Of a stretch of DNA of 64,000 bases, positions 28,312 through 51,632 are shown piece after piece. Both the position numbers and the translations under genes were made by a program. The number at the start of each line of letters is the position of its first letter. Within the stretch, counting starts at the first letter, position 1. Location of the stretch: IMG/VR virus record IMGVR_UViG_3300034220_000029, positions 526 through 64,525 of that record; one strand, written 5' to 3'. The notes below the pieces were generated by a model that saw only the letters and a program-made list of their open reading frames with translations, made no database searches and was not told the DNA's origin. This DNA comes from a virus.

Positions 28312-28380
28312 GTGAACTCCAAAAATTCCGCAAAGCGCGGTTGATGGGACCCATTCCTTAAATAGGTCCCGGGGTGCCTG

Positions 28381-28677
28381 TCAAGTGTTGTCGGTTTGCC
28401 TTTCCATCTGCTTGTCGATCCGGGCCCTCAGCTCCCGCAGCTCACCAGTCATGCGACCCTGCGCCTGGCGGTAGTCGTCGATGGTTTCGTCGCGCTCGTC
28501 GATGATTGCCTTCTGGTGGTCCATGAAGTTCAGCGCGGCGTGCCAGACCTTGCTGCCGATCAGCTCCTGAGTCATGGCAGGCCAGGGCTCACCGTGGCGC
28601 AGTGCCTCGACCTGCATGGTGGTGTCGTCACGGATGAAGACGTACTTGCCTTCGCAAAATTCGTAGCGTGTTTTCAT
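28381..28677 (-). CDS. Hypothetical protein
   Basis: 98 aa; start overlaps upstream stop. Confidence 0.75.
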   Translation of the reverse strand: MKTRYEFCEGKYVFIRDDTTMQVEALRHGEPWPAMTQELIGSKVWHAALNFMDHQKAIIDERDETIDDYRQAQGRMTGELRELRARIDKQMERQTDNT

Positions 28678-28913
28678 GGGAATCCTGGGAAAGGGCCGTC
28701 GACGATTTCTACCGTTGTGTCCATCGATTCGACCGAGCCAATGATCTCGACGGACGGCTCAAGCTTGAGCAGCCCTTCGTTGTGGGCGTCAAGCAGTTGC
28801 TCGACGTACTGCTGCTGATCCTCGTCAGCGACGTTGTCGGGGATGGGTATGTGGAAGCGCTCGCGCTCCCACACCGCCTGGATGCGGTCGACGGTGTAGA
28901 GGCGGGCTGTCAA
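28674..28913 (-). CDS. Acidic hypothetical protein
   Basis: GGAG + TTG start at 28913. Confidence 0.65.
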   Translation of the reverse strand: MTARLYTVDRIQAVWERERFHIPIPDNVADEDQQQYVEQLLDAHNEGLLKLEPSVEIIGSVESMDTTVEIVDGPFPGFP

Positions 28914-28914
28914 T

Positions 28915-29370
28915 TCAGCTCCTCGCCAGGTAGGTGACGCCAGCGAACTCGACCTCGCTGTAGTCGGCCTTGATGTTGTCGGCGGTAGCGTCCCAGTCAA
29001 TGACGAGGTAGTTGGGCAGGTCCTGCGGGAGATCGCCGATTTCCTTCAGCAGCTCTTGCGTGTACTCGACGAAGTGGTCCTCGCGGATCAGTGTGGCGCC
29101 GTGTTCCCAGTCGGAGACGTTCGATTGGGCCTCGTCAGCCAGGCCCTGCAGTTTCAGGAACTCTTCGGCTTCCTCGTTCAGGATGTGGCTTGAATCGTCT
29201 GCAACGTGCTGCAGCCAGTCGTCGTAGCTGAGCTGGTTCTTCTCGTCAACGCCCTCGTTGTCGGGGAGTTCGCCGTACGCATCTTCGAGCTCGCTATCGA
29301 GCTCCTCCATGCGGGCGATGACATCCCGGCTGTCAATGATTTGGTCAAATTCATTTACTTCTCGTGCCAT
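28915..29370 (-). CDS. ArdA-like acidic antirestriction/DNA-mimic protein
   Basis: Very Asp/Glu-rich; C-terminal FVEYTQELLKEIGDLPQDLPNYLVIDWDATA resembles the ArdA C-domain. Confidence 0.6.
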   Translation of the reverse strand: MAREVNEFDQIIDSRDVIARMEELDSELEDAYGELPDNEGVDEKNQLSYDDWLQHVADDSSHILNEEAEEFLKLQGLADEAQSNVSDWEHGATLIREDHFVEYTQELLKEIGDLPQDLPNYLVIDWDATADNIKADYSEVEFAGVTYLARS

Positions 29371-29411
29371 GTTGGCCTCCAAAAATTGCCGCAAAGTGCA
29401 GCGGGGTTAAA

Positions 29412-29543
29412 TCAGTCGCAGCTGCCGCCCTCGGTGTCCTCGGGCTTGACGCGGTTGAATTCCGATGCGGGCAGGTGCCCACATTCCATGCCATAGAAAT
29501 ATTCCACGGCGGCCGGCGGAGGGCTTGCCGGCGACTCAGTCAT
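29412..29543 (-). CDS. Small hypothetical peptide (43 aa)
   Basis: Manual translation; start overlaps upstream stop. Confidence 0.45.
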   Translation of the reverse strand: MTESPASPPPAAVEYFYGMECGHLPASEFNRVKPEDTEGGSCD

Positions 29544-29769
29544 TGGTTTTTCTTCCTTGACCATTTGAGATTTCCTTCAGGCGGTTGTGCGCCCACTGGA
29601 CCCCTTCAAAGAGGCCGGCGCTTCGGTGAATGACTTGCCCTCGGCGCTTGATTGCGATGAGGGACTCAGGTGTCGGCTCATACTCAAGGTGGTACGGCCC
29701 CACGATGCAGGCCCGCTGCGAGGCCTGCTCGTCGACTTGCGGCGGTGCTTCAAGTTCGAGGGTAGTCAA
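29536..29769 (-). CDS. Hypothetical protein
   Basis: TTG start overlaps upstream stop. Confidence 0.55.
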   Translation of the reverse strand: MTTLELEAPPQVDEQASQRACIVGPYHLEYEPTPESLIAIKRRGQVIHRSAGLFEGVQWAHNRLKEISNGQGRKTND

Positions 29770-30914
29770 GGCGTCTTCACCCCTTCCTTGAGGGCAGCCA
29801 CAGCTGGGTTGAAGAACTCCGACTCCAGCGCTTCCATCGCATCGTCGGAGCCGATGAAATTCCAGCAGCTGTCGTGGTCGTCGCGCGGAATCCAGCCGAT
29901 GCCGTCGCCGTCCCCAGTCACGTCTGGGTCGAGGTCGAACACCTCGACGACGCAGCCGTAGACGTCGCCGCTGCACCACTTTGCATACTCGCTGCAGACG
30001 GACTCTGCATACTCTTCCGCTGCACGGCGCAGGTCAGACTCGTCGGTGGGCGGATACTCGTTCGCAATATGCAAACGGCATACGCCCCAGCTGCCCCGGA
30101 AGACTTCCACCTCGCCATGAAAGACACCGTAGACGCTGTCGGGGTGAGGCGTCACCTGCCTCATCGAGATGCCCGGCGGGTACGGCGTCAGGTTGTCGAT
30201 GGCGCCCTTGTCTGCCACCCACACCGCGTTGGGGAGGTCGTTGTGGTCACCGTCCCAGTCATGCAGGGAGATGCTCGTCTCGCCGCGGCCGTCGCTGTAG
30301 TGCATCGGGATCACGTAGGGGCCGACGATCTGCCTCCAGTAAACCGTGTAGAGCTGGATCGCCCGCTCCTGTATCGGGTCCCAGAACACGCCGTTCGGGT
30401 CCTCGAGGTCTTGCCACAGCTCGTTGCGGTGAGCGACGAGCGCCTGATCAAGCGTCTCGCCCTCTTCAAGTTCGAGGTCACGGACCTCAAGCCAGTTGCC
30501 GAACAACTCGAAGTCCCCCTCGACCTTGGCAAGCCACTCAAGGGCGGCGATGTCGCGCAGGCAGTGGCTCGCCACCTGTAGACCGCGGTGCCCGATGTAG
30601 GGGTCACACGCAAACAGGTGGTCGATGTCGGGTTGGTCGTAGCTGTCAACACGTAGTGCCCGCCGCAGCTCCGACTCGTCGTCAGTGATGACGCCCTCGT
30701 TGTGGGTGTACAGGTCGCCTTGGCAATCGCCGTCGGTCATCGGGTTGCCACTGCCGTCGTTATCCTGGACCAGGTACGCGATGACGAGATGGTCGCCGAC
30801 GCGCTCGGCCATCATGTTGTCTTCGGAGACCGGCTCGAAGGTCAGGGGTACTTCGACGCCCTCGACCTCGACACTGTGCGTGGTGCGGGTTCGGGTTCGT
30901 GTTCTCAGGTGCAT
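29766..30914 (-). CDS. Large acidic hypothetical protein (382 aa)
   Basis: GGAG RBS; YAKWCSGDVYG...DSCWNFIG pattern. Confidence 0.85.
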   Translation of the reverse strand: MHLRTRTRTRTTHSVEVEGVEVPLTFEPVSEDNMMAERVGDHLVIAYLVQDNDGSGNPMTDGDCQGDLYTHNEGVITDDESELRRALRVDSYDQPDIDHLFACDPYIGHRGLQVASHCLRDIAALEWLAKVEGDFELFGNWLEVRDLELEEGETLDQALVAHRNELWQDLEDPNGVFWDPIQERAIQLYTVYWRQIVGPYVIPMHYSDGRGETSISLHDWDGDHNDLPNAVWVADKGAIDNLTPYPPGISMRQVTPHPDSVYGVFHGEVEVFRGSWGVCRLHIANEYPPTDESDLRRAAEEYAESVCSEYAKWCSGDVYGCVVEVFDLDPDVTGDGDGIGWIPRDDHDSCWNFIGSDDAMEALESEFFNPAVAALKEGVKTP

Positions 30915-30925
30915 GGCGGCTCCAG

Positions 30926-31222
30926 TTAAACGCTGAAGCGTGGTGAGAAGAGGTTGGTCATGTGCCCAGTGCTGCGGTCGATGCGGTTGCAGATGCCTGC
31001 AACGTCGTGGGCGAAGTTGAAGCCGTCAGCATCGAGCAGCTGCTGCAGCTTCAACGGGTTGCCGTTGGCGTGGCATGCCGTGATGTCCATCTGCATGCCC
31101 AGGACGTCGGTGAAGCCGCTGTCGGGGAACTCCTTCATGAAGCGTTGGACGATCTGGTCGATGAGGGCGGAGTCGGCGGGGCAGACTCGGAAGGAAACTC
31201 GTTCTTTGCGTGCGGTGGTCAT
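30926..31222 (-). CDS. Conserved small phage protein
   Basis: MDITACHANGNPLKLQQLLDADGFNFAHDVAGI pattern. Confidence 0.8.
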   Translation of the reverse strand: MTTARKERVSFRVCPADSALIDQIVQRFMKEFPDSGFTDVLGMQMDITACHANGNPLKLQQLLDADGFNFAHDVAGICNRIDRSTGHMTNLFSPRFSV

Positions 31223-31242
31223 GTGTGGTCCTTGGTAATGAA

Positions 31243-32637
31243 TCAACCTACCGCCCGGTCAAGCCTGTACCCGGCGGTGGTGGCGATGCCAGCCACATCG
31301 ACGTTGCGCAGGCATTGCCCGACGCGCTTCATCAAGGCGATGACCATGCCGGGTGCAACGCCCTGGCCAAGCGCGATGTGCTTGTCGGTGTTGGACATGC
31401 CGGCGACCAGCGCCGGGTTGACACCCTTGATCCGTGCATGCTCGTCGCCGCTGAAGAGGCGCAGCAGGTTGGGGTCAGTCGGGTGCTTGAGCAGCGGGTC
31501 GGTCGAGCCGCCCTTGTGATAGCCCTTGCGCAGCGTCGGGACCTTGGTGGAAGTGGGGTCGACGATCTGCATCTGGAAGCCCTTGCCGGCTGCCTTGTCG
31601 GTCACAGCCTTGTCCTTGAGGTACTGGAAGGTGCCCCAGTGGTGGTCGCCGTGCCGGTCGAGGATGTCAGCCACGGTGCGAACTGGGCGCACAGCTGGAG
31701 CCAGGCCAGCAAGGTCCAGCGTGATGCCGCGGGTGACGGCCACGAGGAACCAGCGGATGCGCTTTTCGAGGGCGCCGAAGTCCTGCGAGTCCAGCACCAC
31801 TTCGTGGGTCGAGTAGCCCATGTCGCGCAGCTGCTGGCGGATGATCGATGCCGAGGCGGAGGTGGCGTACTCAGGGACGTTCTCCAGCAGCACCACACCG
31901 GGCTGAAACTTCTGGACGAACGTCAGGAAGGCGTGGGCAAGGTGGCCGACCTCGGGGTGGTCTTCCATCATGGCGATCCCGTGCTTGGATTTGCCGGCCT
32001 TGCTGGCGCCGCTGCAGGGGATGCCAGCCACCAGCACGTCGGCGTAGGGAAGGGAGGCCATCAGCGCCTCGTCCTGGATCGCTTCCTGCATCGGTGCTGC
32101 GATCGTCATCGTTGTCGGGGTGATGGCGTCGTTGGCGGAGCTGGCATGCTCCAGCAGGTCGGCGTCAATCTCGTTGACGACCACGGCATGCGCGGCGATC
32201 CCGACCTGAGCCAGACCGGCGTGGGCGGCGTTGTCGAGGATGCCGGCGCCGAAGGCCAGGCCCGCCACCGTCAGGGCCGCACCGCTCAAACCGGTGCGCA
32301 AACGTGCGAGGCGGGTCGTGGCGGCCTTTTCGGAGGCCAGCTGGGAGATCAGGATCTCGCCGTCGTTGAATTCGACCTTGACGGCCTCCATGCCCTTGAA
32401 GGCGCCGAGCACCAGGTCGGAGTTCAGATCGATCACCGGGACCGACTTGGCACCCTCACCCTTGCCGGACACAAGGAATCCGCCCTCAGGGTTGCTGTAC
32501 AGGCGCACAGCGTCTTCCTTGACGTCGATGGAGTAGCGGTCGCCCCGCTTGAATCCGCAGCCTGCAAGGCGTTGGGTCTGGAAGTAAAGGCGTGGCCGGC
32601 CGCGGTGCGACCCGACCTGTTTGGTCTCGTAGTGCAT
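31243..32637 (-). CDS. DNA cytosine-C5 methyltransferase with extra N-terminal domain
   Basis: AFGAGIL (motif I), GIPC (IV), LENV (VI), RIRWF (VIII), LGQGV (X). Confidence 0.9.
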   Translation of the reverse strand: MHYETKQVGSHRGRPRLYFQTQRLAGCGFKRGDRYSIDVKEDAVRLYSNPEGGFLVSGKGEGAKSVPVIDLNSDLVLGAFKGMEAVKVEFNDGEILISQLASEKAATTRLARLRTGLSGAALTVAGLAFGAGILDNAAHAGLAQVGIAAHAVVVNEIDADLLEHASSANDAITPTTMTIAAPMQEAIQDEALMASLPYADVLVAGIPCSGASKAGKSKHGIAMMEDHPEVGHLAHAFLTFVQKFQPGVVLLENVPEYATSASASIIRQQLRDMGYSTHEVVLDSQDFGALEKRIRWFLVAVTRGITLDLAGLAPAVRPVRTVADILDRHGDHHWGTFQYLKDKAVTDKAAGKGFQMQIVDPTSTKVPTLRKGYHKGGSTDPLLKHPTDPNLLRLFSGDEHARIKGVNPALVAGMSNTDKHIALGQGVAPGMVIALMKRVGQCLRNVDVAGIATTAGYRLDRAVG

Positions 32638-32686
32638 AGGACTCCAAAAGCTGCCGCAAAGCGCGGCGGGTTGTGTGATGGGCTGC

Positions 32687-32959
32687 TCAGTGATGCGAGA
32701 TCGGTGGGCGCGAGCTGCCCCAGCTCGACGAGGGCGGGGCGACAGGCGGGGTCACTGGCTCAGGCATCGGGCCGCGCAGACGCTTGACCCGCGCAGCCTG
32801 ATACCGAACCTGGGCCCTGGCCAAGTCGAGGGAGTCGAGGGCTTCCAGCTCGGCGACCAGGGCGGCTTGCAACTTGCGATCCCGCGCTTGCTCCTGGGTC
32901 AGTGGCCGCCACACTTCGAGGAAGGGCTGGATCAGTTTTCGTTGGAGGTAGTTAAGCAT
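32687..32959 (-). CDS. Hypothetical protein
   Basis: Coupled ORF. Confidence 0.6.
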   Translation of the reverse strand: MLNYLQRKLIQPFLEVWRPLTQEQARDRKLQAALVAELEALDSLDLARAQVRYQAARVKRLRGPMPEPVTPPVAPPSSSWGSSRPPISHH

Positions 32960-33227
32960 TGTCTGGATACTCCTGGGGAAGGTCGGGTCTCACGCATTCG
33001 ACGGCTGCGTCACGGCCAGTGGCCAGCAGCAGCAGAACGCCGGGGTTGAGTTGTTGGTTCGGAGCTACTAGCTCCAGTGCACCCATCGCGCCGATGAAGA
33101 AGTGCAGTTGCGCCTCGGCGTGTTTTTTGGTGCCGGGCTTGAGGCCTTGGGCTTCCCTCCGGCCTTTCCACTTCAGCGCGAGGCGGTGAAGCAAAATGGC
33201 GTGGGCTGTGTGACTGTGGGCGATCAT
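32952..33227 (-). CDS. Hypothetical protein
   Basis: Coupled ORF. Confidence 0.7.
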   Translation of the reverse strand: MIAHSHTAHAILLHRLALKWKGRREAQGLKPGTKKHAEAQLHFFIGAMGALELVAPNQQLNPGVLLLLATGRDAAVECVRPDLPQEYPDNA

Positions 33228-33718
33228 TCCTGATACCTCCAGTCAGCCGGCACGTCGTACGCTGTGACGTCGCCGTCGCAGGTGTCGATGATCCCGGCGT
33301 TGGGCACGCAGGGTGATGCGCGGCGGGCTTTGTCCGTGGAGAACGGAGACATCAAGATGAAGAAGTGCAGGGCGCCACCCATCCAGCTCGATTGGTACTG
33401 CACCGGGTTGGGCGGGTAGCCCTCGATCTCGATCTCGCCCGCCGTGATGGCGCTGTCGCATTCCCATTCGTCGCCGAACTCCTCGGTGGCCGCGTCCTCG
33501 TCCAGCGCACCGTTGCCGTCGAGCAGCCGCTCGGGTACGAAGTCGCCGTTGTCAATGTCGGCCCGGAGCTCTGTGAGGAACTCCTGGAGGCCTTCGACGT
33601 AGCTCAAGTCTCGCGCATGGCTCCCGTACAGCAGTGTTTCCACGATGTCCGGGTCCAGGCTGGCCGCGCTGATGTAGCCGTAGGCGATGCCGCTGTCGGG
33701 GTTGACGTTGGGAGTCAT
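33224..33718 (-). CDS. Acidic hypothetical protein
   Basis: NVNPDSGIAYGYI...SPCVPNAG pattern; coupled. Confidence 0.8.
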   Translation of the reverse strand: MTPNVNPDSGIAYGYISAASLDPDIVETLLYGSHARDLSYVEGLQEFLTELRADIDNGDFVPERLLDGNGALDEDAATEEFGDEWECDSAITAGEIEIEGYPPNPVQYQSSWMGGALHFFILMSPFSTDKARRASPCVPNAGIIDTCDGDVTAYDVPADWRYQE

Positions 33719-33960
33719 GAAATCTCCCCGCGGCAGTCGCCGCAGTGTGTGTGCAGTTCCGCATCCGTCGTGAACAGTGGGTGAATTAAGTTGCCCTCGC
33801 GGTCAACGAGGTCGTACTCCACGCCTTGGTCGTCCTTGCAGGACTCACCCATGGCGTAGGGGTGGTTGTGGTCGAGCTTCATCCGCTGCGTTGCCTTCTG
33901 GGTACAGGGCACGCAGTGGGCATCCGCCTCGAAGGCGTAGCCGTAGATGCGGTCGGTCAT
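33715..33960 (-). CDS. Small Cys/His-containing protein
   Basis: HCVPC...HCGDC; coupled. Confidence 0.75.
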   Translation of the reverse strand: MTDRIYGYAFEADAHCVPCTQKATQRMKLDHNHPYAMGESCKDDQGVEYDLVDREGNLIHPLFTTDAELHTHCGDCRGEIS

Positions 33961-34788: not shown

Positions 34789-35104
34789 CCTCCAGCTTCC
34801 CGACCGTGATCAGGTGCGTGCGCAGCGCGTTGGTGGCGGCGGCGTAGCAGCTGTGCGAATGGAACTCGCCGACGGTCTGGATGTTGCCGTTGTCGGGGTC
34901 CTGGCGCCGCACGCTGAAGCCGACCACGCCCGAAGGGTTGGTCTCTTGCGTGACGAAGTAGTTGCCGTGGTCAGTCTTCACGCCGACGCCGGGCAGCACT
35001 GTGCGGAAGAACACGAGTGTTTCGGTGTCGAACCAGTGGCGGAACTCGCCGGGGCGGTACAGCCGCTTGATCTCGGCCATGGAAATGGCGGGGTATCCAA
35101 GCAT
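34772..35104 (-). CDS. Conserved phage hypothetical protein
   Basis: Hairpin + GGAG RBS; HWFDTETLVFF...YFVTQE pattern. Confidence 0.8.
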   Translation of the reverse strand: MLGYPAISMAEIKRLYRPGEFRHWFDTETLVFFRTVLPGVGVKTDHGNYFVTQETNPSGVVGFSVRRQDPDNGNIQTVGEFHSHSCYAAATNALRTHLITVGKLEVAHAA

Positions 35105-35173
35105 GTTGATCTCCTAAGGTTGCCCAAAGCGGGCGGTGTTCACGAAAGGTGAACGGGTGGGTTTGCTGAACGG

Positions 35174-35530: not shown

Positions 35531-35531
35531 G

Positions 35532-38977: not shown

Positions 38978-39249
38978 GAGTCTTGCTCCAGCGTCACGTC
39001 GGCGTCGGCGCAGAGCACCGAGACCTTGATGCCCATCTCGTCAAGCTTGCCGTAGCCTTCGATGAAGTCGTTGTTCCAGCCAGCGATGCGGCCGGTGGCC
39101 GCCAGCTCGCCGATGTGGGCGACGTGTTCTTCGATCGTGTCGAAGGCGTAGAAGCTCTTGCGGAACTCCTCCATGAACTCCGGTGTGAATTTGGTCTCGT
39201 CGATCGAGACATCGACGAGCACGTCGACGTTGACAGTAAAGTTTTTCAT
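38974..39249 (-). CDS. Acidic hypothetical protein
   Basis: Hairpin + GGAG RBS. Confidence 0.8.
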   Translation of the reverse strand: MKNFTVNVDVLVDVSIDETKFTPEFMEEFRKSFYAFDTIEEHVAHIGELAATGRIAGWNNDFIEGYGKLDEMGIKVSVLCADADVTLEQDS

Positions 39250-39282
39250 GTTGAACTCCGTTGTTGCCGCAAAGCGCGGCGG

Positions 39283-39471
39283 TTATTTGACTGCGGCCTT
39301 CTTCACTTCACGGCACGCCGACCAGCGGGCAGACTTGCCGATGTCAGCAACCAACTCCATGCAGTCGGCCTTGGTTGCGATGTTGTCGATGACGACCGGG
39401 CCGCCGCTGGCAGCGTGGTAGCCGGTAAGGTCGAAGTAGGCGATGAACACCCAGACAGCGATCGTGCTCAT
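39283..39471 (-). CDS. Small exported Cys-pair protein
   Basis: Hydrophobic N-terminus; two Cys. Confidence 0.7.
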   Translation of the reverse strand: MSTIAVWVFIAYFDLTGYHAASGGPVVIDNIATKADCMELVADIGKSARWSACREVKKAAVK

Positions 39472-42255: not shown

Positions 42256-42467
42256 CCATTCCTCGCAAGCTTGCGCAGGGCGAGCATGTCGCGGCCACTC
42301 ACGAGGACGTCGAAGTTGAGCTGGCGTCTGGCCGCGCGGCGCAGCTTGCGCAGGGCCGTGGTGCGCCCCATCAGATGGCGCGGGCCGCCACCCCACCGGG
42401 CGTGAAGCCGCAGGTCGTACGTCAGGTTGATGACGACGTAGGGTTTGCGTTTGAGGCTTGAACTCAT
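42252..42467 (-). CDS. Small Arg-rich protein
   Basis: Hairpin + AGGAG RBS. Confidence 0.7.
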   Translation of the reverse strand: MSSSLKRKPYVVINLTYDLRLHARWGGGPRHLMGRTTALRKLRRAARRQLNFDVLVSGRDMLALRKLARNG

Positions 42468-42547
42468 TTGGACTCCTAAAACAATAGCAACAAGGTGTTG
42501 CGGGTAAAGGGCTGGGCCCTCTCCAGTACATCCGGTGCACTGGGGAG

Positions 42548-42567
42548 GGCACCCCCGAAGGGGTGCC
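42548..42567 (-). terminator. 8-bp C(UUCG)G hairpin in non-coding structured region
   Basis: GGCACCCC-TTCG-GGGGTGCC on minus strand; no U-tract. Confidence 0.5.
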
Positions 42568-43598: not shown

Positions 43599-44530
43599 GC
43601 GACCTCGGTCCTTGCGCTGACCACGGCGAGCGTCTCGACGTCGAGCTCGAGCCGCACCAGGTGCGTCCGCTTCGCGGAAGTGAGGCTGGCTTGATCGCGG
43701 TCGATGCGCAGGTCGCCCATGAGGACCTGCTCGCCGTCGCGGTGGGCAGCTGCAGCAATCCAGCGGACCGCTGTGGGCTTCATGCGGTACTCGAAGTCCG
43801 GGTCCTCCGGGCACGGTGTCGCAGCCGGCATCCATTCACGGTTCGGCCCCCTGCGGAACTCCAGGCGATGCTTCAGACCCCTGAGCTCGGCCAAGGTGAT
43901 GACCTCCTTGTTCGCCCTGACGCGGGCCTCGTCTGCCGCCTTGATCTGGGCGACCCGTTTCGCAGCGGCCCGGCGGGCAATTTCAGCCCGGACGCCGACG
44001 ATCGACAGGCCCCTGGGAGGTTGAGGGGACTGGACCTCGAACGCGCCCTCGGCGCAGAACGTGACGCCGTCGTTGACGCCCATGACGTTGAGAGAGGCAG
44101 CCAGCTGCTCGTCAGTCGCGTCTATCAGGCCGATCGGCTCACGGGCAGACGCCGGGGTGTTATTGAGGCAGCCGATGACGCCGCCGGAGAGGTCAGCGCC
44201 AATGACGCGCATCAGGTCGGTGATGATCGTCTCGAAGGAATCGGCGGGCCTGGCCGGGCCGAGGTCAGCGACGATCCGGCTGCCATCCTTCTCGGCGTCG
44301 CCGGTGCTGTTGAAGCGACCGTCTGCGGAAAAGGACTGGTGTCTGTTAACCCAGGCCGGACTGCCGCCCTTGGGGCCAAACGCCACGAAGTCAGCGAGGA
44401 TCGGGTATTCGTCGATCGAGCCGGTGGCGTCGTCATCGCCCATGGTGCGTGTCAGCGCTGTGACCCGCACAATATCGCCGTTGGCGCAACGGTAAAAGTT
44501 ACCAACGACTGGGTTGAATTTGAATGTCAA
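43595..44530 (-). CDS. Hypothetical protein (about 311 aa)
   Basis: Hairpin + GGAG + TTG start at 44530. Confidence 0.8.
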   Translation of the reverse strand: MTFKFNPVVGNFYRCANGDIVRVTALTRTMGDDDATGSIDEYPILADFVAFGPKGGSPAWVNRHQSFSADGRFNSTGDAEKDGSRIVADLGPARPADSFETIITDLMRVIGADLSGGVIGCLNNTPASAREPIGLIDATDEQLAASLNVMGVNDGVTFCAEGAFEVQSPQPPRGLSIVGVRAEIARRAAAKRVAQIKAADEARVRANKEVITLAELRGLKHRLEFRRGPNREWMPAATPCPEDPDFEYRMKPTAVRWIAAAAHRDGEQVLMGDLRIDRDQASLTSAKRTHLVRLELDVETLAVVSARTEVA

Positions 44531-44636
44531 TTTGAACTCCGAAAATGTGAGCAATTCGCTCGGGTTTGCCTCTGAAGAAGCAAGTGAAATATACCTTTAG
44601 CGTTACAACTTGTTGCAGGTTTCCTTTGTGACTTAA

Positions 44637-46025: not shown

Positions 46026-46969
46026 TCCTCGTCCCCTATGGCTTTGCGAATCTCAACTGGCACATGGTCGCCGCGGTAAACGGCGTCGCAGACGGCTTCG
46101 GTCGTAGCGGCGACGCTCAGGCCCTCTGGGACCTTGACCTCGAAGCGGGTGACGCTGCTGCAGGCGTTGCCGGGAGCCTGCGAATCGATCGTGAAGCGCG
46201 TCTCAGCCTCTTCCTGAGTACGGAACCACATGACGTGCTCGTTGCGGGTCACGGGGCGCTCGATCACCACACCGTGCACCACCGAGGTCTTCTCCTTCGT
46301 GCCGGTGACGCGCTCGATGACCGAGTCGATACGCTCGGCAGACTTGTCGATGAAGGCACGCAGCTCGTCGAGCTTCTCGACAAGGTCGTTATGCTTGTTC
46401 ACGCACATGGCGATGTAGTCAACCTGGTTGCGGTTGCGCGGCCCGACGGTCGACAAGATCGGCTCACCGTCGCCGTCCACCAAGGCCCATCCGTGGCCGG
46501 TCGTTCTGATATGCACCGGCAGTGCGAACGGCGCAGCATCGAGCTCGGCCACAGGCTCAAGCACCCGCGGCATCAGCTCGTCAAACGTGGTGGGCAGCAC
46601 GCAGTAGCTGCTGTTGCCCCAACGCACAGCGCAATCGAAGTCAAGGCCTGCAGCGCGCTCGATGAACGCCCCCGCCGTCTCGTTGTTGTCTAGCGCCTTG
46701 AAGCGCTTGCTGTAGTTGGCCAGAACGATGGTCATGCCCTCGACACGCTGGGCCAGCCCGATCACGTCCGCAACGTATTTCTCGCGCGGTGTCGGCTCGG
46801 CAGACTCATCAACCACCAGCACGAGGTCGCTGCTTGAGAAGCAGTGCTGCAGGCCCGCCCTGTCTCGCACCCGCGCCCAGTTGGCGGAGATTTTCGTGTA
46901 GAGGATGTGGGTCACGTTCGATTCAAACTCGTCATCCACCGCTATCGAGTCAAAGCGTACGGTTTTCAT
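46022..46969 (-). CDS. Multi-domain hypothetical protein (315 aa)
   Basis: Coupled ORF. Confidence 0.75.
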   Translation of the reverse strand: MKTVRFDSIAVDDEFESNVTHILYTKISANWARVRDRAGLQHCFSSSDLVLVVDESAEPTPREKYVADVIGLAQRVEGMTIVLANYSKRFKALDNNETAGAFIERAAGLDFDCAVRWGNSSYCVLPTTFDELMPRVLEPVAELDAAPFALPVHIRTTGHGWALVDGDGEPILSTVGPRNRNQVDYIAMCVNKHNDLVEKLDELRAFIDKSAERIDSVIERVTGTKEKTSVVHGVVIERPVTRNEHVMWFRTQEEAETRFTIDSQAPGNACSSVTRFEVKVPEGLSVAATTEAVCDAVYRGDHVPVEIRKAIGDEE

Positions 46970-47328
46970 GCTGGTGCCCTTTCGATGGCGGTGTCGAGCA
47001 CCAGCAGCACGTCGGCGTGCTTGGTGTCTTGGTGGTCGTTGAACTGGGTCATCAGCCAGGAGGGTGCAAACGCGGTGCCGGTGTCGTGTTTCCGGGTAGG
47101 AAACAACTCAAGCAGGATCGGCGCGACAGCCTCACGCACCTCAAGGGCCCTGCCGAAGTGCCCTTGCGTCGCGACGTCCACACCACCGAAGAAGCAATAG
47201 CAAACCGCGTCAGCCTCCAGGGACGACGTGGGCCCACCAAGCGCGTCCCGGCCGAAGGCGCCCTTGGTCCAGCGCTCCTTGTCAGCGAGGACCTCGCGTG
47301 TGGCGATCAGGTCAGATTTGAGTGTCAT
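46966..47328 (-). CDS. DUF6197-like protein
   Basis: WTKGAF...CYCFFG...FNDHQDTKHADVL (family name from memory). Confidence 0.75.
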   Translation of the reverse strand: MTLKSDLIATREVLADKERWTKGAFGRDALGGPTSSLEADAVCYCFFGGVDVATQGHFGRALEVREAVAPILLELFPTRKHDTGTAFAPSWLMTQFNDHQDTKHADVLLVLDTAIERAPA

Positions 47329-47717
47329 GCTGCCACCTCTTCCATCGTGACGGGCAGGGTGGCATTGACGGGGGTTTCAGCCGGCGCGTCCATGTCGATT
47401 TGAACCTCAGCCGCAAGGCGCAACGACCAGCCACCCTCGACAAGGGCATAGGCAAGCATCCGGCCGGTCGTGGCGTAGCGCTCACGCAGGGTGCGGGCCA
47501 CCTTGTACAGGGGGCCGAACTCGACTCGTGCGGGGCCGTCGTGGCCGAGCATGAAAGACTCGATGGTGGCGCGCAAACGCTGTGACAATGGGCTGCGCTC
47601 CAGTACCAGACGGTGTCGGTGGTACGGGCCAGACCCAGGTAGGGCAATGGCCACCATCAAGGTAAAATCGCCATCCCCGGGGATGGGGGACGTGGCTGTC
47701 GCTCTGACTTCGTTCAT
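47325..47717 (-). CDS. Hypothetical protein
   Basis: Hairpin + GGAG RBS. Confidence 0.75.
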   Translation of the reverse strand: MNEVRATATSPIPGDGDFTLMVAIALPGSGPYHRHRLVLERSPLSQRLRATIESFMLGHDGPARVEFGPLYKVARTLRERYATTGRMLAYALVEGGWSLRLAAEVQIDMDAPAETPVNATLPVTMEEVAA

Positions 47718-47825
47718 AGTCGGACTCCAAAAAGGTGCAACAAAGCGTTGCGGGGTGTGAGCGATTGTGCTCGGGTCTGTAGGACTGTGCTAACTATTTT
47801 TGTAGGACAGTCTTATTTTCGTGAA

Positions 47826-48314
47826 TTAGTTATCGGAACGCGGCTTGCTCCCCAAGCGGTTTGACCGGCAGGAACTCAAGAATCTGCGAGCCATCTGGAT
47901 CATGGGCAGCGAGACAAGGATTTGGCGGGCGCCCCGCACAGCGTTCAAGAAGGCGACCTTGTCTTCGAGGTAAACCGTGTCGTAGCTCCCGTTCCACGAC
48001 GGGTTCGCCACCAGCTTCATCGGCGGAGCGTCATCGAATCGCACGGTCACGATGCACTGCTGGCTGCAGTTAATCATGCCTTTGCTGACTGCGACGCTGA
48101 CCCCAGTGCCCCGCTGCATCCACCCGAGGCTCAGCACACCGTGCACGGGGCCGTCGAAGGGCGGCTTCAGGCTCAGGGTGTTGCTGCGGACGGTGGCGCC
48201 GTGCGACACCTCGTTCGTCATCCGGTCAGTTTTGGACACGAGAGTCCATTCAGCCTGTGCCGAGAAGCAGCACAGAGCGGCGATCAATGCGAGGGTACGG
48301 GGCAGGGTCTTCAT
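47826..48314 (-). CDS. Secreted protein, possibly frameshifted near C-terminus
   Basis: Signal peptide MKTLPRTLALIAALCCFSAQA; VRFDDAPP; GGAG RBS. Confidence 0.8.
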   Translation of the reverse strand: MKTLPRTLALIAALCCFSAQAEWTLVSKTDRMTNEVSHGATVRSNTLSLKPPFDGPVHGVLSLGWMQRGTGVSVAVSKGMINCSQQCIVTVRFDDAPPMKLVANPSWNGSYDTVYLEDKVAFLNAVRGARQILVSLPMIQMARRFLSSCRSNRLGSKPRSDN

Positions 48315-48378
48315 GGTGGCTCCAGTAAAAGTGGTCACTGAATGTACAGTCTGGCGCCAGCCCCGTATATGGACAAAT

Positions 48379-48594
48379 TTACAGTCCCTGGCCTTTCAGC
48401 TCGCGCACCTTGCGCAAACCAGACTTGGCCTGCTTCAGGGTTGCGTCGAACTCCTCAAGCGTCGCACGGTGCGATGAATCAAGGCCTGCAGCCTCCGCCA
48501 GTGCGGCGCGTGTGGCCAAGGTGTTGCGGTACATCCTGCTCAGCGCGCTCACTTCGGCGTTGGTCAGCGGTTTGAATTCGGGGTCGGTTCTCAT
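48379..48594 (-). CDS. Hypothetical protein
   Basis: Helical ORF. Confidence 0.65.
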   Translation of the reverse strand: MRTDPEFKPLTNAEVSALSRMYRNTLATRAALAEAAGLDSSHRATLEEFDATLKQAKSGLRKVRELKGQGL

Positions 48595-48595
48595 G

Positions 48596-48865
48596 TCAGT
48601 CCCCGACAACGTCTGAGCCTTGAACTGCGGCGAGATCAACCTTCACCTTGGCGTGAAGGCCCCGCATGCCGAGGGCGTGGCGCAGTTTGCTGGCTGCCTC
48701 AAGGGCATAGGCCCTGCTGCGGCCGTTCACGCCGCCCAGCAGGTCGTGGATGGCTTCGAGCCCGGCTCGCATGGCCACGGTGTCTCGGTCGGTGGCGGCG
48801 CGGGCCGCAATGTTGTCGACGAGCTGCCGGGCTACGGCAGCGCGCTCAATGTTTGGGTCAGTCAT
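48596..48865 (-). CDS. Hypothetical protein
   Basis: SD AGGA + ATG. Confidence 0.7.
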   Translation of the reverse strand: MTDPNIERAAVARQLVDNIAARAATDRDTVAMRAGLEAIHDLLGGVNGRSRAYALEAASKLRHALGMRGLHAKVKVDLAAVQGSDVVGD

Positions 48866-49085
48866 ATTTGTGGTTCCTGTGTGATTTCAGTCCGGGAGCG
48901 ATCTTGCAGCAGGCCGAGTAGTGGGCTTCGGCGCCCTCCACATCGTCACAGCGCACCTTGGTGTGGACCTCGCCGTCGGGGTCCCTGAGGAGCACAGCGT
49001 ACATGCCCCGGACACCGGCCTCCCGCTCCACGCTGACATGCGCCCCGTTTTTGTAGGTGCGGCTCTTTGGTTTTCGCATCGGCAT
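48858..49085 (-). CDS. Hypothetical protein
   Basis: SD GAAGGA + ATG at 49085. Confidence 0.7.
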   Translation of the reverse strand: MPMRKPKSRTYKNGAHVSVEREAGVRGMYAVLLRDPDGEVHTKVRCDDVEGAEAHYSACCKIAPGLKSHRNHKYD

Positions 49086-49256
49086 GGCGTGTCCTTCATG
49101 TTGGCGTTGTCGGGGCGTCGCGGGTATCGGCTGTGACCCAGGTGTGTCGCGTAGGCGAGGGGCACAGCGGGTGAGGGTGAGGGTGACAGGGGCGGTGACG
49201 TTGTCGGGGTTGTCGCCGGATGGCGACAACTTTGACGTTGTCGGGGTGCGTTTCAA

Positions 49257-49630
49257 ATGGGAAACGACCTTAGACCGTTGATTTCATTGAAGAATAAAAA
49301 TTCCTGATTTGCAAAATAGGGGTGCAGGGTAAAACGGCCTTTTTCATGAGAAAGTTACAAAGTACGTTTCACATTATGAAATGAAGTAAAAAAATAAAAG
49401 TGATTCCACCAGCTTCGGGGGACTTATATTTAACTACTCTTTTTTCTGTTTCTATTCAACAACTTGATCGCGTTTTTCTGCAAAAATGTGCCTCTTTTTT
49501 GAGCACAGCTGGATACTTGTCCAGTGGTTTTTGTCTGTTACAACTGTAACGATGCTATCAATTTTGACGTGAGTAAGCGCTAATTTAAGGCGTTTAATTG
49601 GGGACAGAGTAGCGATTTTGTTACAACTTG
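49257..49630. promoter_or_regulatory. AT-rich non-coding tract, candidate origin or packaging/control site
   Basis: Clearly lowest GC in window; no plausible ORF; flanked by oppositely oriented motif copies. Confidence 0.55.
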
Positions 49631-49687
49631 CGCTCCAGACCTGCCCCCGACAACGTCATGCACCAAATCAGTGCCAAAACTATGCAA

Positions 49688-49759
49688 ATTTCACATTGTG
49701 GAACGCCCAGGACCTGCCCCCGACAACGTCAAGCGCAGGAAAATTCCACAATGTGAAAT
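49688..49759. repeat. Perfect 16-bp inverted repeat enclosing one motif copy
   Basis: ATTTCACATTGTGGAA 49688-49703 and TTCCACAATGTGAAAT 49744-49759. Confidence 0.9.
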
Positions 49760-49792
49760 GTCGAGGGCCCAGCCCCCGACAACGTCACCGTC

Positions 49793-50044
49793 TCAGGCAA
49801 AGACGGCGGCCTGATTCCTGGCCGCCCAGTACGTGCGGCCTGCCAGAACGGGCGCTGGTGCCGGTTCTTGGTAGAAGTCAGCCACCAGCACTGGGTTATG
49901 CCCGTCCGTGGCGTACAGGCGCCCTGAGCAGGCCCTGGCGCGGCTTTCCGATCGAGCCCTGTTCTTGCTCAGTACACCGTAGCGGGTGAAGACAGCGCCG
50001 GGCATGGTGACGTTGTCGGGGCGCATGACGTAGTACAGCATCAT
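49793..50044 (-). CDS. Hypothetical protein
   Basis: ATG overlaps stop of upstream peptide. Confidence 0.7.
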   Translation of the reverse strand: MMLYYVMRPDNVTMPGAVFTRYGVLSKNRARSESRARACSGRLYATDGHNPVLVADFYQEPAPAPVLAGRTYWAARNQAAVFA

Positions 50045-50106
50045 GCACCCAGCAAGGCGGTCAGGGCTTCGTCGAGGACAGGCAGCTCAGGGGTGTAGTC
50101 GATCAT
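50041..50106 (-). CDS. 21-aa peptide MIDYTPELPVLDEALTALLGA
   Basis: Hairpin + GGAGTTCAAC-ATG; stop overlaps next ATG. Confidence 0.6.
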   Translation of the reverse strand: MIDYTPELPVLDEALTALLGA

Positions 50107-50968
50107 GTTGAACTCCAAATGAGGCGCAAATCGCGCCGGGTTGCGGGACAAGGCAAAGAGCAGGGTCCGTGTGCAGGGCCCTGTTATTTGCCCCCGACAA
50201 CGTCAATGCCTCTGGCGGCGGCGTTGTCGGGGACTCAGGTTTTAAACCGCGTCTCAAAGCGAGACGGTTGGCCGGCCAGTGCCGGGATTCCACAGTACGC
50301 GCCCTGTGTTATGGCGTTGCATATACCCTTGCGATCGGGTTCGTTATTCAGCTTATGCGACCACCTCCCGCCCCGTCGTTGTCGGGGTTTGCCGGAGTTG
50401 CTGCATATTCCTTTTTCAGGTTCAGCACGGCGCTGCAGAACAGCGCGCTACTCGTGGGGATGTGTCATCGCACCTGGCCATTGCTTTCGCGGGACCATGG
50501 GCTCAGCAGTGGTGTCTGCTGGTTGCGGGCTTTCACCGGCTAGGCCTCTGTGATGTGCATGGGTCAGTCGATCGGTCGGCCTGTTGTGAGTGACTTGGCC
50601 GCCGTCAATGCTGGTTCAGCATCACATAGCGTAGGGCTGCCACGGGTAGCCCGTCAGGGCCCGCAATGGTGGCAGCTTGGCAGTGCCTGCACAGCAAGCC
50701 CCGACAATGTGAGCGCCTTCGAGCGTGAATCCGGATGCTGCAACTGGTGCGGGCAAGGGGACAAACGCTGTCCAGGTGGGGGCCATAGAGGCCGCCACGG
50801 GGCAGGGGCGCCGACGGTACTAGCGCTATGCGCGCTGGCGTTGTCGGGGATACTGTGCAAACTTTTAAGGGGCGGCCCGGGTAACGGATTCACCGGGCAT
50901 GGGCTTAGCGCCGATGCTGGGGGAAAGCGTTACCGTATCCCTTTCGGGGGGCGAGCAGTGCGATGACT

Positions 50969-51007
50969 GGCTTTAGGATGCTATCATTTTGATAGCATGC
51001 TAAAGCC
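50969..51007. repeat. Long palindrome (17-bp stem, one mismatch, 3-nt loop)
   Basis: GGCTTTAG-G-ATGCTATCA-TTT-TGATAGCAT-G-CTAAAGCC. Confidence 0.85.
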
Positions 51008-51030
51008 TGCTTTTGCAGGCTTCAGGGTGT

Positions 51031-51555
51031 TTATGCTGTGATGGCCTCCTTTTTGGCAAGGGCAGCGCGCAGGCTGTCGCGTTCAATGAGCACGCTCGCC
51101 AGCTCTGCCTCAAGGCGCGCGATTTTCTGCGCTGGTGTTTCCGCTGTCGGGTCTTTAGGCTTCTTCACTGCGTCCTTGAAGAAGCCGCACCACATCCCGG
51201 ACAGCTCTACCATGCGTGCATCATGGTCGTCCTGATCCTTGGCGCGTCCATTGGCAGTGAAGTCCTGCAGGGCATGAATGCAGGTGGCACGCCACGCGCG
51301 GGCACGGGAAGACTTCAGGGTGTCGGAGTGCAGGCGCTTGAATACCTCAGCTGTAGCAGTGAGGGCGGAAAGCTCAGCCTTGCTACCACCGGAGGCAATC
51401 ATGCTGCTGAAGACAGGCGCTACAGCGTCGAAGGTGGCAGGGCCTACCTCTGCACCCTTGAGGGCCAGCAGGGCAGCGGCAATGCTGAGGGGGGAGTATT
51501 TGAGGGACACGACAGCAGGACGCTTGGCGCTTGGGGCGGTAGTGGTGAGGGACAT
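51031..51555 (-). CDS. First leftward early gene, helical Ala-rich protein
   Basis: Hairpin + AGGAG RBS; C-terminal coiled coil. Confidence 0.8.
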   Translation of the reverse strand: MSLTTTAPSAKRPAVVSLKYSPLSIAAALLALKGAEVGPATFDAVAPVFSSMIASGGSKAELSALTATAEVFKRLHSDTLKSSRARAWRATCIHALQDFTANGRAKDQDDHDARMVELSGMWCGFFKDAVKKPKDPTAETPAQKIARLEAELASVLIERDSLRAALAKKEAITA

Positions 51556-51632
51556 AGTAAGGACTCCTAAGTGTGGGCAAGGTGCCCGGTGTAGGGATGC
51601 GTTATTGCTTCCCATGCCCGCAATTATGTACC

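Follow-up and report, generated by a model that had tools for sequence, protein, structure and literature searches.

A repeated covarying hairpin ahead of early-gene ribosome-binding sites in temperate siphoviruses

Hairpin copies in the early region

Why should the early genes of a virus be preceded, time after time, by a short hairpin standing at nearly the same distance from a ribosome-binding site, and would such a signal act in DNA or in RNA? The question is raised by a first-pass annotation of the 64,000-nucleotide stretch analysed here (the window), which reported ten such hairpins upstream of GGAG sequences. All ten are present on the minus strand with stems, loops and GGAG spacing as claimed: the stems are 4-5 bp with a C-G closing pair, the loops are GCTTT in five copies, ACCTT in two, and ACTTT, GAATT and GATTT in one each, and the hairpin precedes GGAG by 6, 7, 7, 7, 6, 10, 8, 8, 6 and 7 nt, reading from copy 10 to copy 1. 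ACC(C), described as the usual 5′ neighbor, stands before the hairpin in 9 of the 10 copies, and the claim that stem pairing is always kept is borne out in all ten apart from one G.T wobble in the copy at 29388. The copies and the genes they head are as follows.

51550..51598, minus strand: copy 1, hairpin 51575-51587; ACACC, stem GGGC/GCCC, loop ACCTT, 7 nt, GGAG, ATG
51031-51555, minus strand: 174-codon ORF headed by copy 1, the first early gene, 3′ of the presumed immunity switch
50099..50147, minus strand: copy 2, hairpin 50123-50137; AACCC, stem GGCGC/GCGCC, loop GATTT
50041-50106, minus strand: 21-codon ORF headed by copy 2, with an ATGA overlap to the conserved 83-aa gene at 49793-50044
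47711..47761, minus strand: copy 3, hairpin 47737-47751; stem GCAAC/GTTGC, loop GCTTT; heads a 130-codon ORF
47759-47772, minus strand: small second hairpin immediately upstream of copy 3
44523..44572, minus strand: copy 4, hairpin 44549-44561; stem GAGC/GCTC, loop GAATT; heads a 311-codon ORF with a TTG start
42459..42511, minus strand: copy 5, hairpin 42487-42501; stem GCAAC/GTTGC, loop ACCTT, 10-nt spacer; heads a 71-codon ORF
39242..39290, minus strand: copy 6, hairpin 39266-39280; stem GCCGC/GCGGC, loop GCTTT; begins 2 nt past the stop of the upstream ORF and heads a 91-codon ORF
35097..35145, minus strand: copy 7, hairpin 35122-35134; stem GCCC/GGGC, loop GCTTT; heads a 110-codon ORF
35138-35154, minus strand: 6-bp hairpin adjoining copy 7 on its upstream side
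32628..32677, minus strand: copy 8, hairpin 32653-32667; stem GCCGC/GCGGC, loop GCTTT
31243-32637, minus strand: gene for a 464-aa DNA methyltransferase, headed by copy 8
29363..29412, minus strand: copy 9, hairpin 29388-29402; stem GCTGC/GCGGC with one G.U, loop ACTTT; heads a 151-codon ORF
28303..28351, minus strand: copy 10, hairpin 28328-28340; stem CCGC/GCGG, loop GCTTT
27403-28311, minus strand: conserved 302-aa gene headed by copy 10, the last unit ahead of the replication genes

Occurrence in related genomes

The observation is real and much stronger than chance. A mechanical scan for perfect stems closed by C around a 5-nt loop that ends in TT yielded 17 hairpins on the minus strand; in nine of them GGAG follows after 6-10 nt, against a chance expectation of about 0.5. 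The same scan of the plus strand found GGAG at that distance after 1 of 11 hairpins. A covariance model built from the ten window hairpins (R1) scored these founders at E-values from 7e-13 to 8e-9, with the next-best match in the window at 0.03. Searching the remaining 20 kb of the 84-kb prophage genome with R1 gave no additional copies, and the assertion that the hairpin never occurs among replication or virion genes holds for that genome.

When the search was extended to relatives, as had been suggested at first pass, R1 picked up a further 47 copies in five related viral contigs that had played no part in building the model. The integrated 84-kb phage and at least five uncultured relatives thus carry 10-13 copies per genome, in all six genomes exclusively in the early region and always on the early-gene strand. 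The phages carrying the element are temperate siphoviruses, and each of the four near-complete genomes has an integrase. Rfam covariance models run against positions 27000-54000 of the window, with E-values up to 5, gave no match, and nothing was found in the literature searched; the element is undescribed, as had been supposed.

Covariation and folding

The hairpin is part of a unit of about 45 nt that consists of AACCC, a 4-6 bp stem closed by C-G, a loop of the form R..(Y)T, about seven G-poor bases, GGAGTYCAAC, and ATG. Among the 57 clean copies there are 25 distinct stems. Pairing holds in 96% of the cells of the 61-row model alignment, versus 61% in shuffles, and both sides are altered in 80 cells, versus 26 expected; moving the partner by one column lowers pairing to 39-48%, and RNAalifold recovers the stem helix and no other. 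Loss of pairing in relatives had been named beforehand as evidence against the element, and the opposite is seen: the hairpin persists, with altered stems, at orthologous loci before the methyltransferase, the 151-aa family and the 302-aa family, in three or four genomes for each. At the level of sequence comparison, these patterns demonstrate selection for pairing.

Loops are 4-5 nt long, rarely 6, across all 57 copies, and the preferred loop depends on the genome, being GCTTT in G000 and G006, GACT or GATT in G001, GATT in G008, GCATT in G007, and ACCTT in G005, which hints at a trans-acting binder. The predicted stability has a median of -8.3 kcal/mol, folding in context gives a median pair probability of 0.98, and the two flanks of the hairpin contain 9% and 4% G. 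Opening the ribosome site is predicted to cost 5.2 kcal/mol versus 6.1 kcal/mol for other Shine-Dalgarno genes of the same regions (p = 0.0016). The predicted gain in accessibility is small, and disrupting the stem computationally shifts it by only about 0.1-0.6 kcal/mol, in a direction that differs between the arms. G.U pairs make up 1 in 297 cells, and their near-absence fits a very strong short RNA stem and a DNA hairpin equally well.

The genes around the element turn over far more than the element does. These early regions are hyperplastic, with no gene family common to all six genomes and five common to four genomes, while the element is always there, and the same families are headed by the hairpin in one genome and internal in another. 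Such a pattern would suit a recombination joint, for which the PeSL cassettes of T4-like phages are a precedent (PMC2839356), where homologous recombination in the common 45 nt would permit swapping, duplication or deletion of early blocks with their expression left intact, and any role in expression would be secondary; a chimeric copy in G005 (L065:14569-14628), with a second loop and 3′ arm, resembles a crossover scar. The identical stretches are, however, just 5 nt and about 13 nt, and the central 10 nt vary yet stay complementary; as recombination needs identity, this variation points to selection on structure. We consider a joint of this kind improbable as the primary role, and it would be compatible with the explanation that we prefer below rather than replace it.

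Position relative to gene starts

All but one of the 57 clean copies lie at the start of an ORF, with the hairpin at about -32 to -18 relative to the start codon. The distance from hairpin to GGAG is 6-8 nt in 48 of the 57, and that from GGAG to the start is 6 nt in 34 of 56. Starts are ATG in 52 of 56 (under a looser criterion, 89% versus 71% for other genes), and the GGAGTYCA spacer is present only where the hairpin is present. Across the predicted ORFs, the hairpin is clearly locked in its distance to the putative ribosome site and confined to early-gene starts. It is also common for a copy to begin no more than 15 nt past an upstream stop codon (25 of 57), which speaks for transcription from upstream, and later genes within blocks mostly have overlapping stop and start codons; as far as gene predictions go, the hairpin falls inside transcribed leaders or short intercistronic gaps. 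The first-pass annotation took it to mark the first gene of each early cassette, which is nearly right. In the window no copy fails to head an ORF, although about six intergenic stretches (77-281 nt) of its early region carry no copy.

Many copies in short early intergenic gaps, asymmetric and in a single orientation, recall the stoperators of phage L5 and the ESAS of cluster K (PMC3203893), and in temperate phages a repressor might bind AACCC and GGAGTYCAAC on double-stranded DNA, silencing early genes in the lysogen. A DNA-binding protein would not select compensatory changes in a variable 5-bp inverted repeat, and what stays invariant is a ribosome-binding site correctly spaced from ATG, so that a DNA operator of this type seems very unlikely.

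Promoters, terminators and candidate factors

Three features upstream of individual copies bear on how the early region is transcribed.

51623..51671, minus strand: sigma70-like leftward promoter region upstream of copy 1 (TTGCAT, 17 nt, TATGAC, and further on TACATAAT), recognized from sequence only
28379-28384, minus strand: TTGACA box, within 28346..28384, directly upstream of copy 10
28346-28370, minus strand: 6-7 bp inverted repeat between the TTGACA box and copy 10

The TACATAAT end lies about 35 nt ahead of the copy 1 stem, and given the sigma70-like region upstream, copy 1 would sit in a 5′ leader. The start predicted from the TTGACA box falls a few nt ahead of the copy 10 hairpin; in the G008 counterpart before the orthologous gene, the inverted repeat is kept with its arms swapped. 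The earlier view that several copies have no sigma70 promoter nearby is borne out for most copies. About eight weak or moderate promoter-like matches occur upstream of the 57 copies, and no strong promoter-like sites were found on the early-gene strand in the early regions of the window and G001. Since no sequence upstream of position -6 is conserved across the copies, and no promoter boxes are found there, the element is not a sigma70 cassette.

Nor is it an intrinsic terminator, because at least five T in the 8 nt past the stem are found in only 6 of the 57 copies, four of them in this genome. Weak terminators or attenuators between blocks would have been suggested by the window, where a simple terminator scan accepts 4 of the 10 copies, with a T-run following the stem. 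The stems are merely 4-6 bp, and the conserved loop and 5′ flank would be needless for termination; contradicted by the sequences of the relatives, the idea appears close to refuted and has next to no chance of being correct.

Antitermination accounts for more of the layout. Here a phage factor would bind the nascent hairpins as nut-like reloading sites and ride the host polymerase through terminators over a leftward unit of 25-50 kb. There are very few sigma70-like promoters over 25 kb, copy 1 stands just past the sigma70-like early-promoter sequence in the manner of nutL, copy 2 of G001 is preceded, at about 10 nt, by a terminator-like 14-bp hairpin with a T-run, and the element resembles lambda boxB in size (5-bp G/C stem, 4-5 nt loop) and in having phage-dependent loop specificity. 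However, this mechanism would leave the fixed 7-nt distance to GGAG and the conserved pre-ATG spacer unexplained, and would employ 10-13 copies though one per operon is enough. No boxA (CGCTCTTA-like) was found beside the hairpin, where (A)ACCC is the only conserved 5′ flank, and the loops are pyrimidine-rich, unlike those of the GNRA type. The first early ORFs (174 and 82 aa) do not encode small arginine-rich proteins, and nearly half of the copies would be melted by a ribosome terminating on the upstream gene. The boxB-like site proposed at first pass is a poor fit for an element locked to the Shine-Dalgarno sequence, and we judge antitermination unlikely.

The same annotation also raised a single-stranded DNA promoter as in N4, in which a polymerase on the extruded hairpin would start at the first G of GGAG and leave a 10-nt leader. 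This G lies 14-15 nt from the hairpin centre, as in LUZ7 hairpin promoters (PMC9163698), stem bases vary with pairing kept, as in N4 (PMC4496689), conservation continues through GGAGTYCAAC like an initially transcribed region, and the scarcity of G.U pairs would agree. Loops are nevertheless 4-5 nt rather than 3, and several copies have a TTGACA box that places a host-polymerase start at the 5′ edge of the hairpin. A PF00940 search of four genomes (G000, G001, G005 and G006), with E-values up to 10, found no T7/N4-type polymerase gene; the control genomes gave no match either, so that the sensitivity of the search is unproven. The longest ORFs are at most 1361 aa and the largest proteins are tape measure, tail fibre, DNA polymerase and primase; the near-complete genomes all encode an integrase. 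With no gene for such an RNA polymerase recovered by that search, and with a sigma70-like sequence ahead of copy 1 by the presumed immunity switch, an N4-type promoter is disfavoured and, in our estimate, quite improbable; on the first of these grounds, the simplest view is that the host polymerase transcribes the early genes. There is a slim chance that true extruded-DNA-hairpin promoters do operate in temperate siphoviruses, served by a new polymerase among the unannotated proteins or by the host enzyme re-targeted by a phage factor, in which case N4-style promoters would extend far beyond N4-like phages.

The core common to the four near-complete genomes consists of integrase, replication and virion genes; no RNA-binder-like protein was found among the proteins they share, and the conserved early 83-aa protein has no recognizable RNA-binding fold.

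Proposed role in early mRNA

Control of translation or RNA stability, rather than of the transcription start, is the most likely function suggested by this arrangement. Our specific proposal, offered tentatively and with belief and doubt nearly in balance, is that an RNA element at -32 to -18 sets or regulates, for the cistron that opens each early block, the loading of ribosomes and the survival of the RNA. From the sequences we infer that the element acts at the RNA level, that it affects translation or stability, and that a binder exists. The translational operator and the processing or stabilizing site named at first pass both appear to remain the best fit, tied to the ribosome site.

The composite signal of about 45 nt would act in early mRNA and not in DNA. 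As the host polymerase transcribes an early block, the 4-6 bp hairpin would fold, with near-G-free tracts on both flanks offering no nearby pairing partner, and would be followed by a fixed GGAG, a fixed 6-nt spacer (UYCAAC) and AUG. The first cistron of each block would in this way receive its own ribosome entry site, insulated from the upstream gene, and later genes in the block would mostly be coupled to the first through their overlapping stop and start codons. Lying within the 30S footprint, the hairpin could also act as an operator: a phage- or host-specific factor, suggested by the conserved closing pair and the genome-specific loop, may bind it and raise or lower the whole early class together. 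If the RNA were begun or cut just upstream, the hairpin might in addition cap the 5′ end against decay.

An element with a fixed place inside the ribosome footprint and a phage-dependent loop type, which outlasts the genes it heads, would permit a direct test of on-off control by a phage over an entire class of messages via one small RNA handle. It would be a compact, context-independent expression part for high-GC bacteria, and the covariance model is a practical marker of early-gene starts in these uncultured phages.

Comparison with known systems

The ompA leader is a 5′-terminal stem-loop that stabilizes its mRNA, and the T7 RNase III sites are intercistronic processing hairpins that need a helix of about 20 bp. 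Like them, the present element is a hairpin at the 5′ end of the RNA of a cistron, or close to it, and stands between the units of an early polycistronic message; unlike them, it has a conserved loop and a fixed distance to a ribosome site. A lambda-type nut site consists of boxA and boxB, the latter with a purine-rich pentaloop of GNRA-like fold, and occurs once per early operon, unconnected with any ribosome site. Likenesses are the 5-bp G/C stem, the short loop in an early transcript with phage-dependent specificity, and the first copy after the early promoter; the loops here (GCTTT, GATT, GACT, GCATT, ACCTT) are not purine-rich, and the 10-13 copies per genome each stand 6-8 nt before GGAG.

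Hairpin promoters of the N4 type have a 5-7 bp stem (at least 4 bp in LUZ7), a conserved 3-nt loop and a start that lies 11-15 nt past the hairpin centre and is usually a G (PMC4496689, PMC9163698), and in N4 the non-conserved stem bases vary freely if pairing is kept (PMC4496689). In LUZ7, initiation at early promoters is at a G 13-14 nt from the centre, and the G start of middle promoters lies about 15 nt downstream of loops of 3-4 nt (PMC9163698). The short covarying stem, conserved loop and G about 14 nt downstream of the centre are shared. The loop length is not, and no gene for a virion or T7-like RNA polymerase was found here.

The promoter-early stem-loop (PeSL) of T4-type phages (Arbiol et al. 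2010, PMC2839356) is likewise a repeated composite signal in which a G/C stem-loop heads ORFan genes of a hyperplastic early region, and the present element may, like PeSLs, mark points of gene swapping. A consensus sigma70 promoter is what defines a PeSL, in which the stem-loop serves as a terminator (PMC2839356), whereas our element has no promoter boxes and usually no T-run, its conserved part being the ribosome site.

Among known concepts the nearest is the SAS/ESAS of cluster K mycobacteriophages, described since 2011 and still of unknown function (PMC3203893; 2025 survey PMC12699233). Both are asymmetric repeats in which a Shine-Dalgarno core is joined to conserved bases without an rRNA partner, located a few nt before the start codon (3-7 nt for SAS) in one orientation, with 11-19 copies of SAS versus 10-13 of the hairpin element. 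Both are limited to the non-structural half of temperate siphovirus genomes and show a strong ATG preference that is kept before unrelated genes, and an inverted repeat precedes about half of SAS. The sequences are unrelated (GGGATAGGAGCCC in SAS versus GGAGTYCAAC), as are the phages, SAS belonging to phages of Mycobacterium. ESAS arms are 17 bp and sequence-conserved, and are read as protein-binding DNA because they lack compensatory changes, whereas a hairpin is present in almost every copy of the new element at a fixed 7 nt from GGAG. Given its different consensus, its variable arms of 4-6 bp and its 80 cells with changes on both sides, the element is a functional analogue of SAS/ESAS and not a member. 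With its structured part established by compensatory changes in 57 copies, it presents the cleaner case.

Ten copies in the window and the genome that carries them

The first-pass annotation had described ten covarying pentaloop hairpins upstream of early-gene GGAG sites, and all ten were recovered in place, with the stems, loops and spacings it reported (numbered here along early transcription on the minus strand, from copy 1 at 51575-51587 to copy 10 at 28328-28340). When the minus strand was scanned mechanically for perfect stems closed by C around a 5-nt loop with TT at its 3′ end, 17 hairpins were found, 9 of which had GGAG 6-10 nt downstream against a chance expectation of about 0.5; the same scan of the plus strand gave 1 of 11. 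Every copy occupies an intergenic gap, just 33-69 nt long in five cases, and most genes inside one early block are joined by ATGA overlaps. R1, a covariance model trained on these ten copies, detected no additional one in the window, nor in the 20 kb of the record outside it.

The record (G000) is 84,353 bp long, the window covers its bases 526-64525, and the window has a GC content of 62%. The main features are as follows.

Layout of the phage genome
Record 207-1418, reaching window position 893: tyrosine integrase, adjoining the repeat with the tRNA-like 3′ part
From 53.2 kb down to 1, minus strand: all genes of this part
53-28 kb, minus strand: about 60 small genes, mostly without annotation
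After these small genes, minus strand: ligase, helicase, primase, family A DNA polymerase, SbcCD
From 53.4 kb, rightwards: terminase, portal, protease, major head, tape measure, J-like tail fibre

A direct repeat of 60-70 bases, which includes the 3′ half of a tRNA-like sequence, lies within the first 100 bases of the record and again at its end (~84,280-84,353). ARAGORN called no complete tRNA there. These end repeats look like prophage att sites, and the tRNA-like 3′ part and integrase at the start, with the same 60-70 bases at the end, identify the record as an integrated temperate phage. An integrase is present in all four near-complete genomes of the group. By megablast, the early region had no match among GenBank phages.

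Related contigs carrying the element

Relatives were reached first with the ligase as anchor and then with a pattern of the conserved flanks only. Five related viral contigs were obtained in this way.

Related viral contigs
G001: 76 kb, assembled as a circle, ligase 49% identical
G005: 71 kb
G006: 85 kb
G007 and G008: fragments

R1, which was built without any sequence from these five, matched 10-13 times in each, in every case on one strand and within one 16-25 kb stretch immediately upstream of the replication genes; copies were also found on five more short metagenome contigs. By contrast, there was no significant R1 match in PMBT3, Lana or Vibrio phage K45, the nearest cultured phages by terminase similarity (~30% identity). 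Scanning GTDB genomes with a pattern yielded 109 matches, with no multi-copy case and only a lone look-alike in a Desulfovibrio MAG. Searches with single proteins returned no relatives of a 302-aa early protein in viral contigs and none of the ligase in GTDB genomes, and an exact 18-mer search of viral contigs gave chance matches for the most part.

Anatomy of the element

Across 57 clean copies, the element opens with a 5′ flank of (A)ACCC, with no conservation upstream of position -6. The stem has 4-6 bp, nearly always G-C first and with a C-G closing pair last, leaving three free positions between them, and encloses a loop of 4-5 nt (rarely 6) with a purine first and T last. Usually A or AC stands directly 3′ of the stem, followed by a spacer, and the distance from stem to GGAG is 6-8 nt in 48 of the 57 copies. 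After GGAG come T-Y-C-A-A-C and the start codon, with a spacer of 6 nt in 34 of 56 copies and ATG as the start in 52 of 56. Counted from the start codon as 0, GGAG spans -10 to -7 and the hairpin roughly -32 to -18. The flanks are depleted in G, which makes up 9% of the ten bases 5′ of the stem and 4% of the six bases 3′ of it, compared with ~31% genome-wide. An ORF of 21-485 codons follows 56 of the 57 copies. The GGAGTYCA arrangement occurs only together with the hairpin, and other genes in the same genomes have GGAG with unrelated spacers.

Several known signals were compared with this anatomy and rejected. A T-run, as an intrinsic terminator would have, follows only 6 of the 57 family copies, four of them in the window; the consensus bases of a his-type pause hairpin are missing at the expected distance; GTYCAAC matches the RYYYAAC inverse core of an integron attC-like site, but the partner core site is absent; and a primase signal would leave the ribosome site unexplained.

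One copy in G005 is chimeric (piece L065:14569-14628, minus strand): an intact hairpin, GCAGC/GCTTT/GCTGC, comes first, next the loop and 3′ arm of a second copy of the ACCTT type, and then GGAG, so that the spacer is 17 nt long. The arrangement looks like a crossover scar between two elements.

Selection for pairing

The 57 clean copies contain 25 different stems. In a 61-row alignment, which was fitted to the model and is thus biased in favour of structure, standard pairs fill 96% of cells, compared with 61% after shuffling and 35-52% after sliding the partner, and both sides have changed in 80 cells versus 26 expected, with such changes at all five pairs. RNAalifold predicted this helix and no other from the same rows, and a MAFFT alignment of the ten window copies gave an agreeing picture. 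The alternative in which AACCC pairs with GGAGU to hide the ribosome site was rejected, as it showed no covariation and RNAalifold returned no such helix.

Orthologous positions give the same result at single loci. Ahead of the methyltransferase gene the stems are GCCGC, GGGGC, GCGCC and GCCC, and ahead of the 302-aa gene family they are CCGC, GCCCC, GCCTC and GCGC, with the hairpin kept throughout; the loss of pairing in relatives that would have told against the original proposal was therefore not seen. A DNA operator was rejected because a DNA-binding protein would not select arms that are variable yet complementary. Rfam contained nothing similar, in agreement with the first-pass view that the element was undescribed. 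The hairpin family is a real, conserved and undescribed structured element.

Transcript context and upstream structures

Upstream of copy 1 (51575-51587) there is a sigma70-like leftward sequence, TACATAAT, which ends ~35 nt before the stem, and a divergent gene adjoins; judged by this placement, the copy would be within a 5′ leader. The first copy in G005 and in G006 also follows operator-like palindromes. These are repeated palindromes of the GAATTCGAA / TCGATTCGG type on the minus strand (L068:3490-3560 in G006 and L065:16370-16440 in G005), directly upstream of the first hairpin, and are probably the immunity operators of the two phages.

In G000, G001 and G008 the orthologous 302-aa gene is preceded by a TTGACA box placed for a host-polymerase start 0-7 nt before the hairpin, so that the hairpin would form the extreme 5′ end of that RNA, an arrangement that stabilises mRNA in E. 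coli. Between the TTGACA box and the last element lies an inverted repeat of 6-7 bp around a 12-nt loop (28346-28370, minus strand), with a counterpart in G008 upstream of L070:18431; the arms are GGGACC/GGTCCC in the window and GGGTCC/GGACCC in G008, the sequence being swapped and the pairing kept. This repeat may be either an operator or another RNA hairpin.

A PeSL-type sigma70 promoter cassette was rejected, as there are no conserved boxes and few promoter-like matches, and 25 of the 57 copies begin 15 nt or less after the upstream stop codon; sigma54, ECF, Bacteroidetes-type and Caulobacter-type promoters had misfit boxes or wrong spacing. An N4-type hairpin promoter was kept as a rival because GGAG begins 14-15 nt from the hairpin centre, the distance at which the early and middle hairpin promoters of LUZ7 are reported to start, also at G (PMC9163698). 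N4 itself leaves non-conserved stem bases free to vary provided that pairing is kept (PMC4496689). We consider an N4-type promoter unlikely, however: the Pfam model for T7-type polymerases had no match in four genomes, in a search of unproven sensitivity since the control genomes gave none either, all large proteins are already accounted for, and the integrase is common to all four near-complete genomes.

Additional structure upstream of the element was not enriched in general, but a second perfect hairpin ending 2-10 nt upstream was, with 14 of 57 copies versus 8.6% expected. AACCC would then form a short single-stranded stretch joining two hairpins, where cutting is plausible.

Other structures and repeats were also noted.

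42548-42567, minus strand: strong hairpin (8 bp, TTCG loop) lacking a T-run, ~45 nt ahead of copy 5 in a 437-nt gap without a gene call
L044:1272-1307 (G001): 14-bp terminator-like hairpin with a TTTT tail, ending ~10 nt before G001 copy 2 and directly following the first early ORF and a CCCCGACAACG motif
49115, 49209, 49246, 49645, 49718, 49774, 50192 and 50232: examples of CCCCGACAACG in the window

The 11-mer CCCCGACAACG is distinct from the hairpin element. It occurs ~33 times in G000 on both strands (window 356-54725 and beyond), both in non-coding DNA, with a cluster at 49.1-50.4 kb, and within genes as codons for P-D-N-(V/A). G001 has 13 copies.

Possible action and binder

When 140 nt of native RNA is folded, the pairs of the hairpin reach a median probability of 0.98, and the energy of the hairpin alone is -8.3 kcal/mol. 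A pseudoknot between loop and GGAG was dropped; U.G, U-A and C-G pairs are possible on paper, and GGAG never varies. Opening the ribosome site costs 5.2 kcal/mol, compared with 6.1 for other Shine-Dalgarno genes in the same regions (p = 0.0016). Disrupting the stem in silico had a slight effect on this cost, and insulation alone is therefore a weak explanation.

The fixed distances, the conserved spacer without rRNA complementarity, the preference for ATG and the confinement to the early class argue for a ribosome-loading element, which would act at the first cistron of each early block; the interval from -32 to -18 falls inside the 30S footprint, on the platform side. A likely second role would be that of a 5′ cap or processing boundary. 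We give this RNA-level reading as a whole slightly less than an even chance, divided about equally between autonomous action and action through a binder. Class-wide control here would resemble T4 RegA or RegB in logic and differ from them in form.

The closing pair and loop ends are conserved while the preferred loop differs genome by genome, as would be expected for co-evolution with a specific binder. When ~35 proteins of the early and replication regions were searched against Pfam and PHROGs, no RNA-binding protein, sigma factor, antiterminator or polymerase emerged. Early gene content varies enormously from genome to genome, and the genes common to the four near-complete ones (integrase, replication and virion genes) include no candidate. 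The leading candidate is a basic protein whose gene lies close to the start of the early region.

50041-50106, minus strand: 21-codon ORF headed by copy 2, with an ATGA overlap with the 83-aa gene
49793-50044, minus strand: basic 83-aa gene, conserved near the early-region head in five genomes

Its fold, predicted with confidence (pLDDT 81), is beta-beta-alpha-beta-beta with a C-terminal helix, and it had no PDB or Atlas match of weight, the faintest lead being the T4 Dmd antitoxin (E 0.5). A host factor or the ribosome itself is also a possible binder.

Comparison with known elements

PeSL cassettes (PMC2839356) have a hyperplastic setting in common with the element, and perhaps also a role in shuffling; the one chimeric copy in G005 resembles a crossover scar. 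Yet their definition rests on a promoter, which the present element lacks. This element is instead start-associated in kind, and its closest counterpart in the literature is the SAS/ESAS of cluster K mycobacteriophages, a repeat with a Shine-Dalgarno core and bases unable to pair with rRNA, 3-7 nt before ATG, present in 11-19 copies in one orientation at non-structural genes only, with inverted repeats ahead of half of them (PMC3203893); its function was still unknown as of 2025 (PMC12699233). The two differ in sequence and phage group and, decisively, in their structure: the arms of ESAS are long, conserved in sequence and non-compensatory, whereas the element described here has a short hairpin with compensatory changes.
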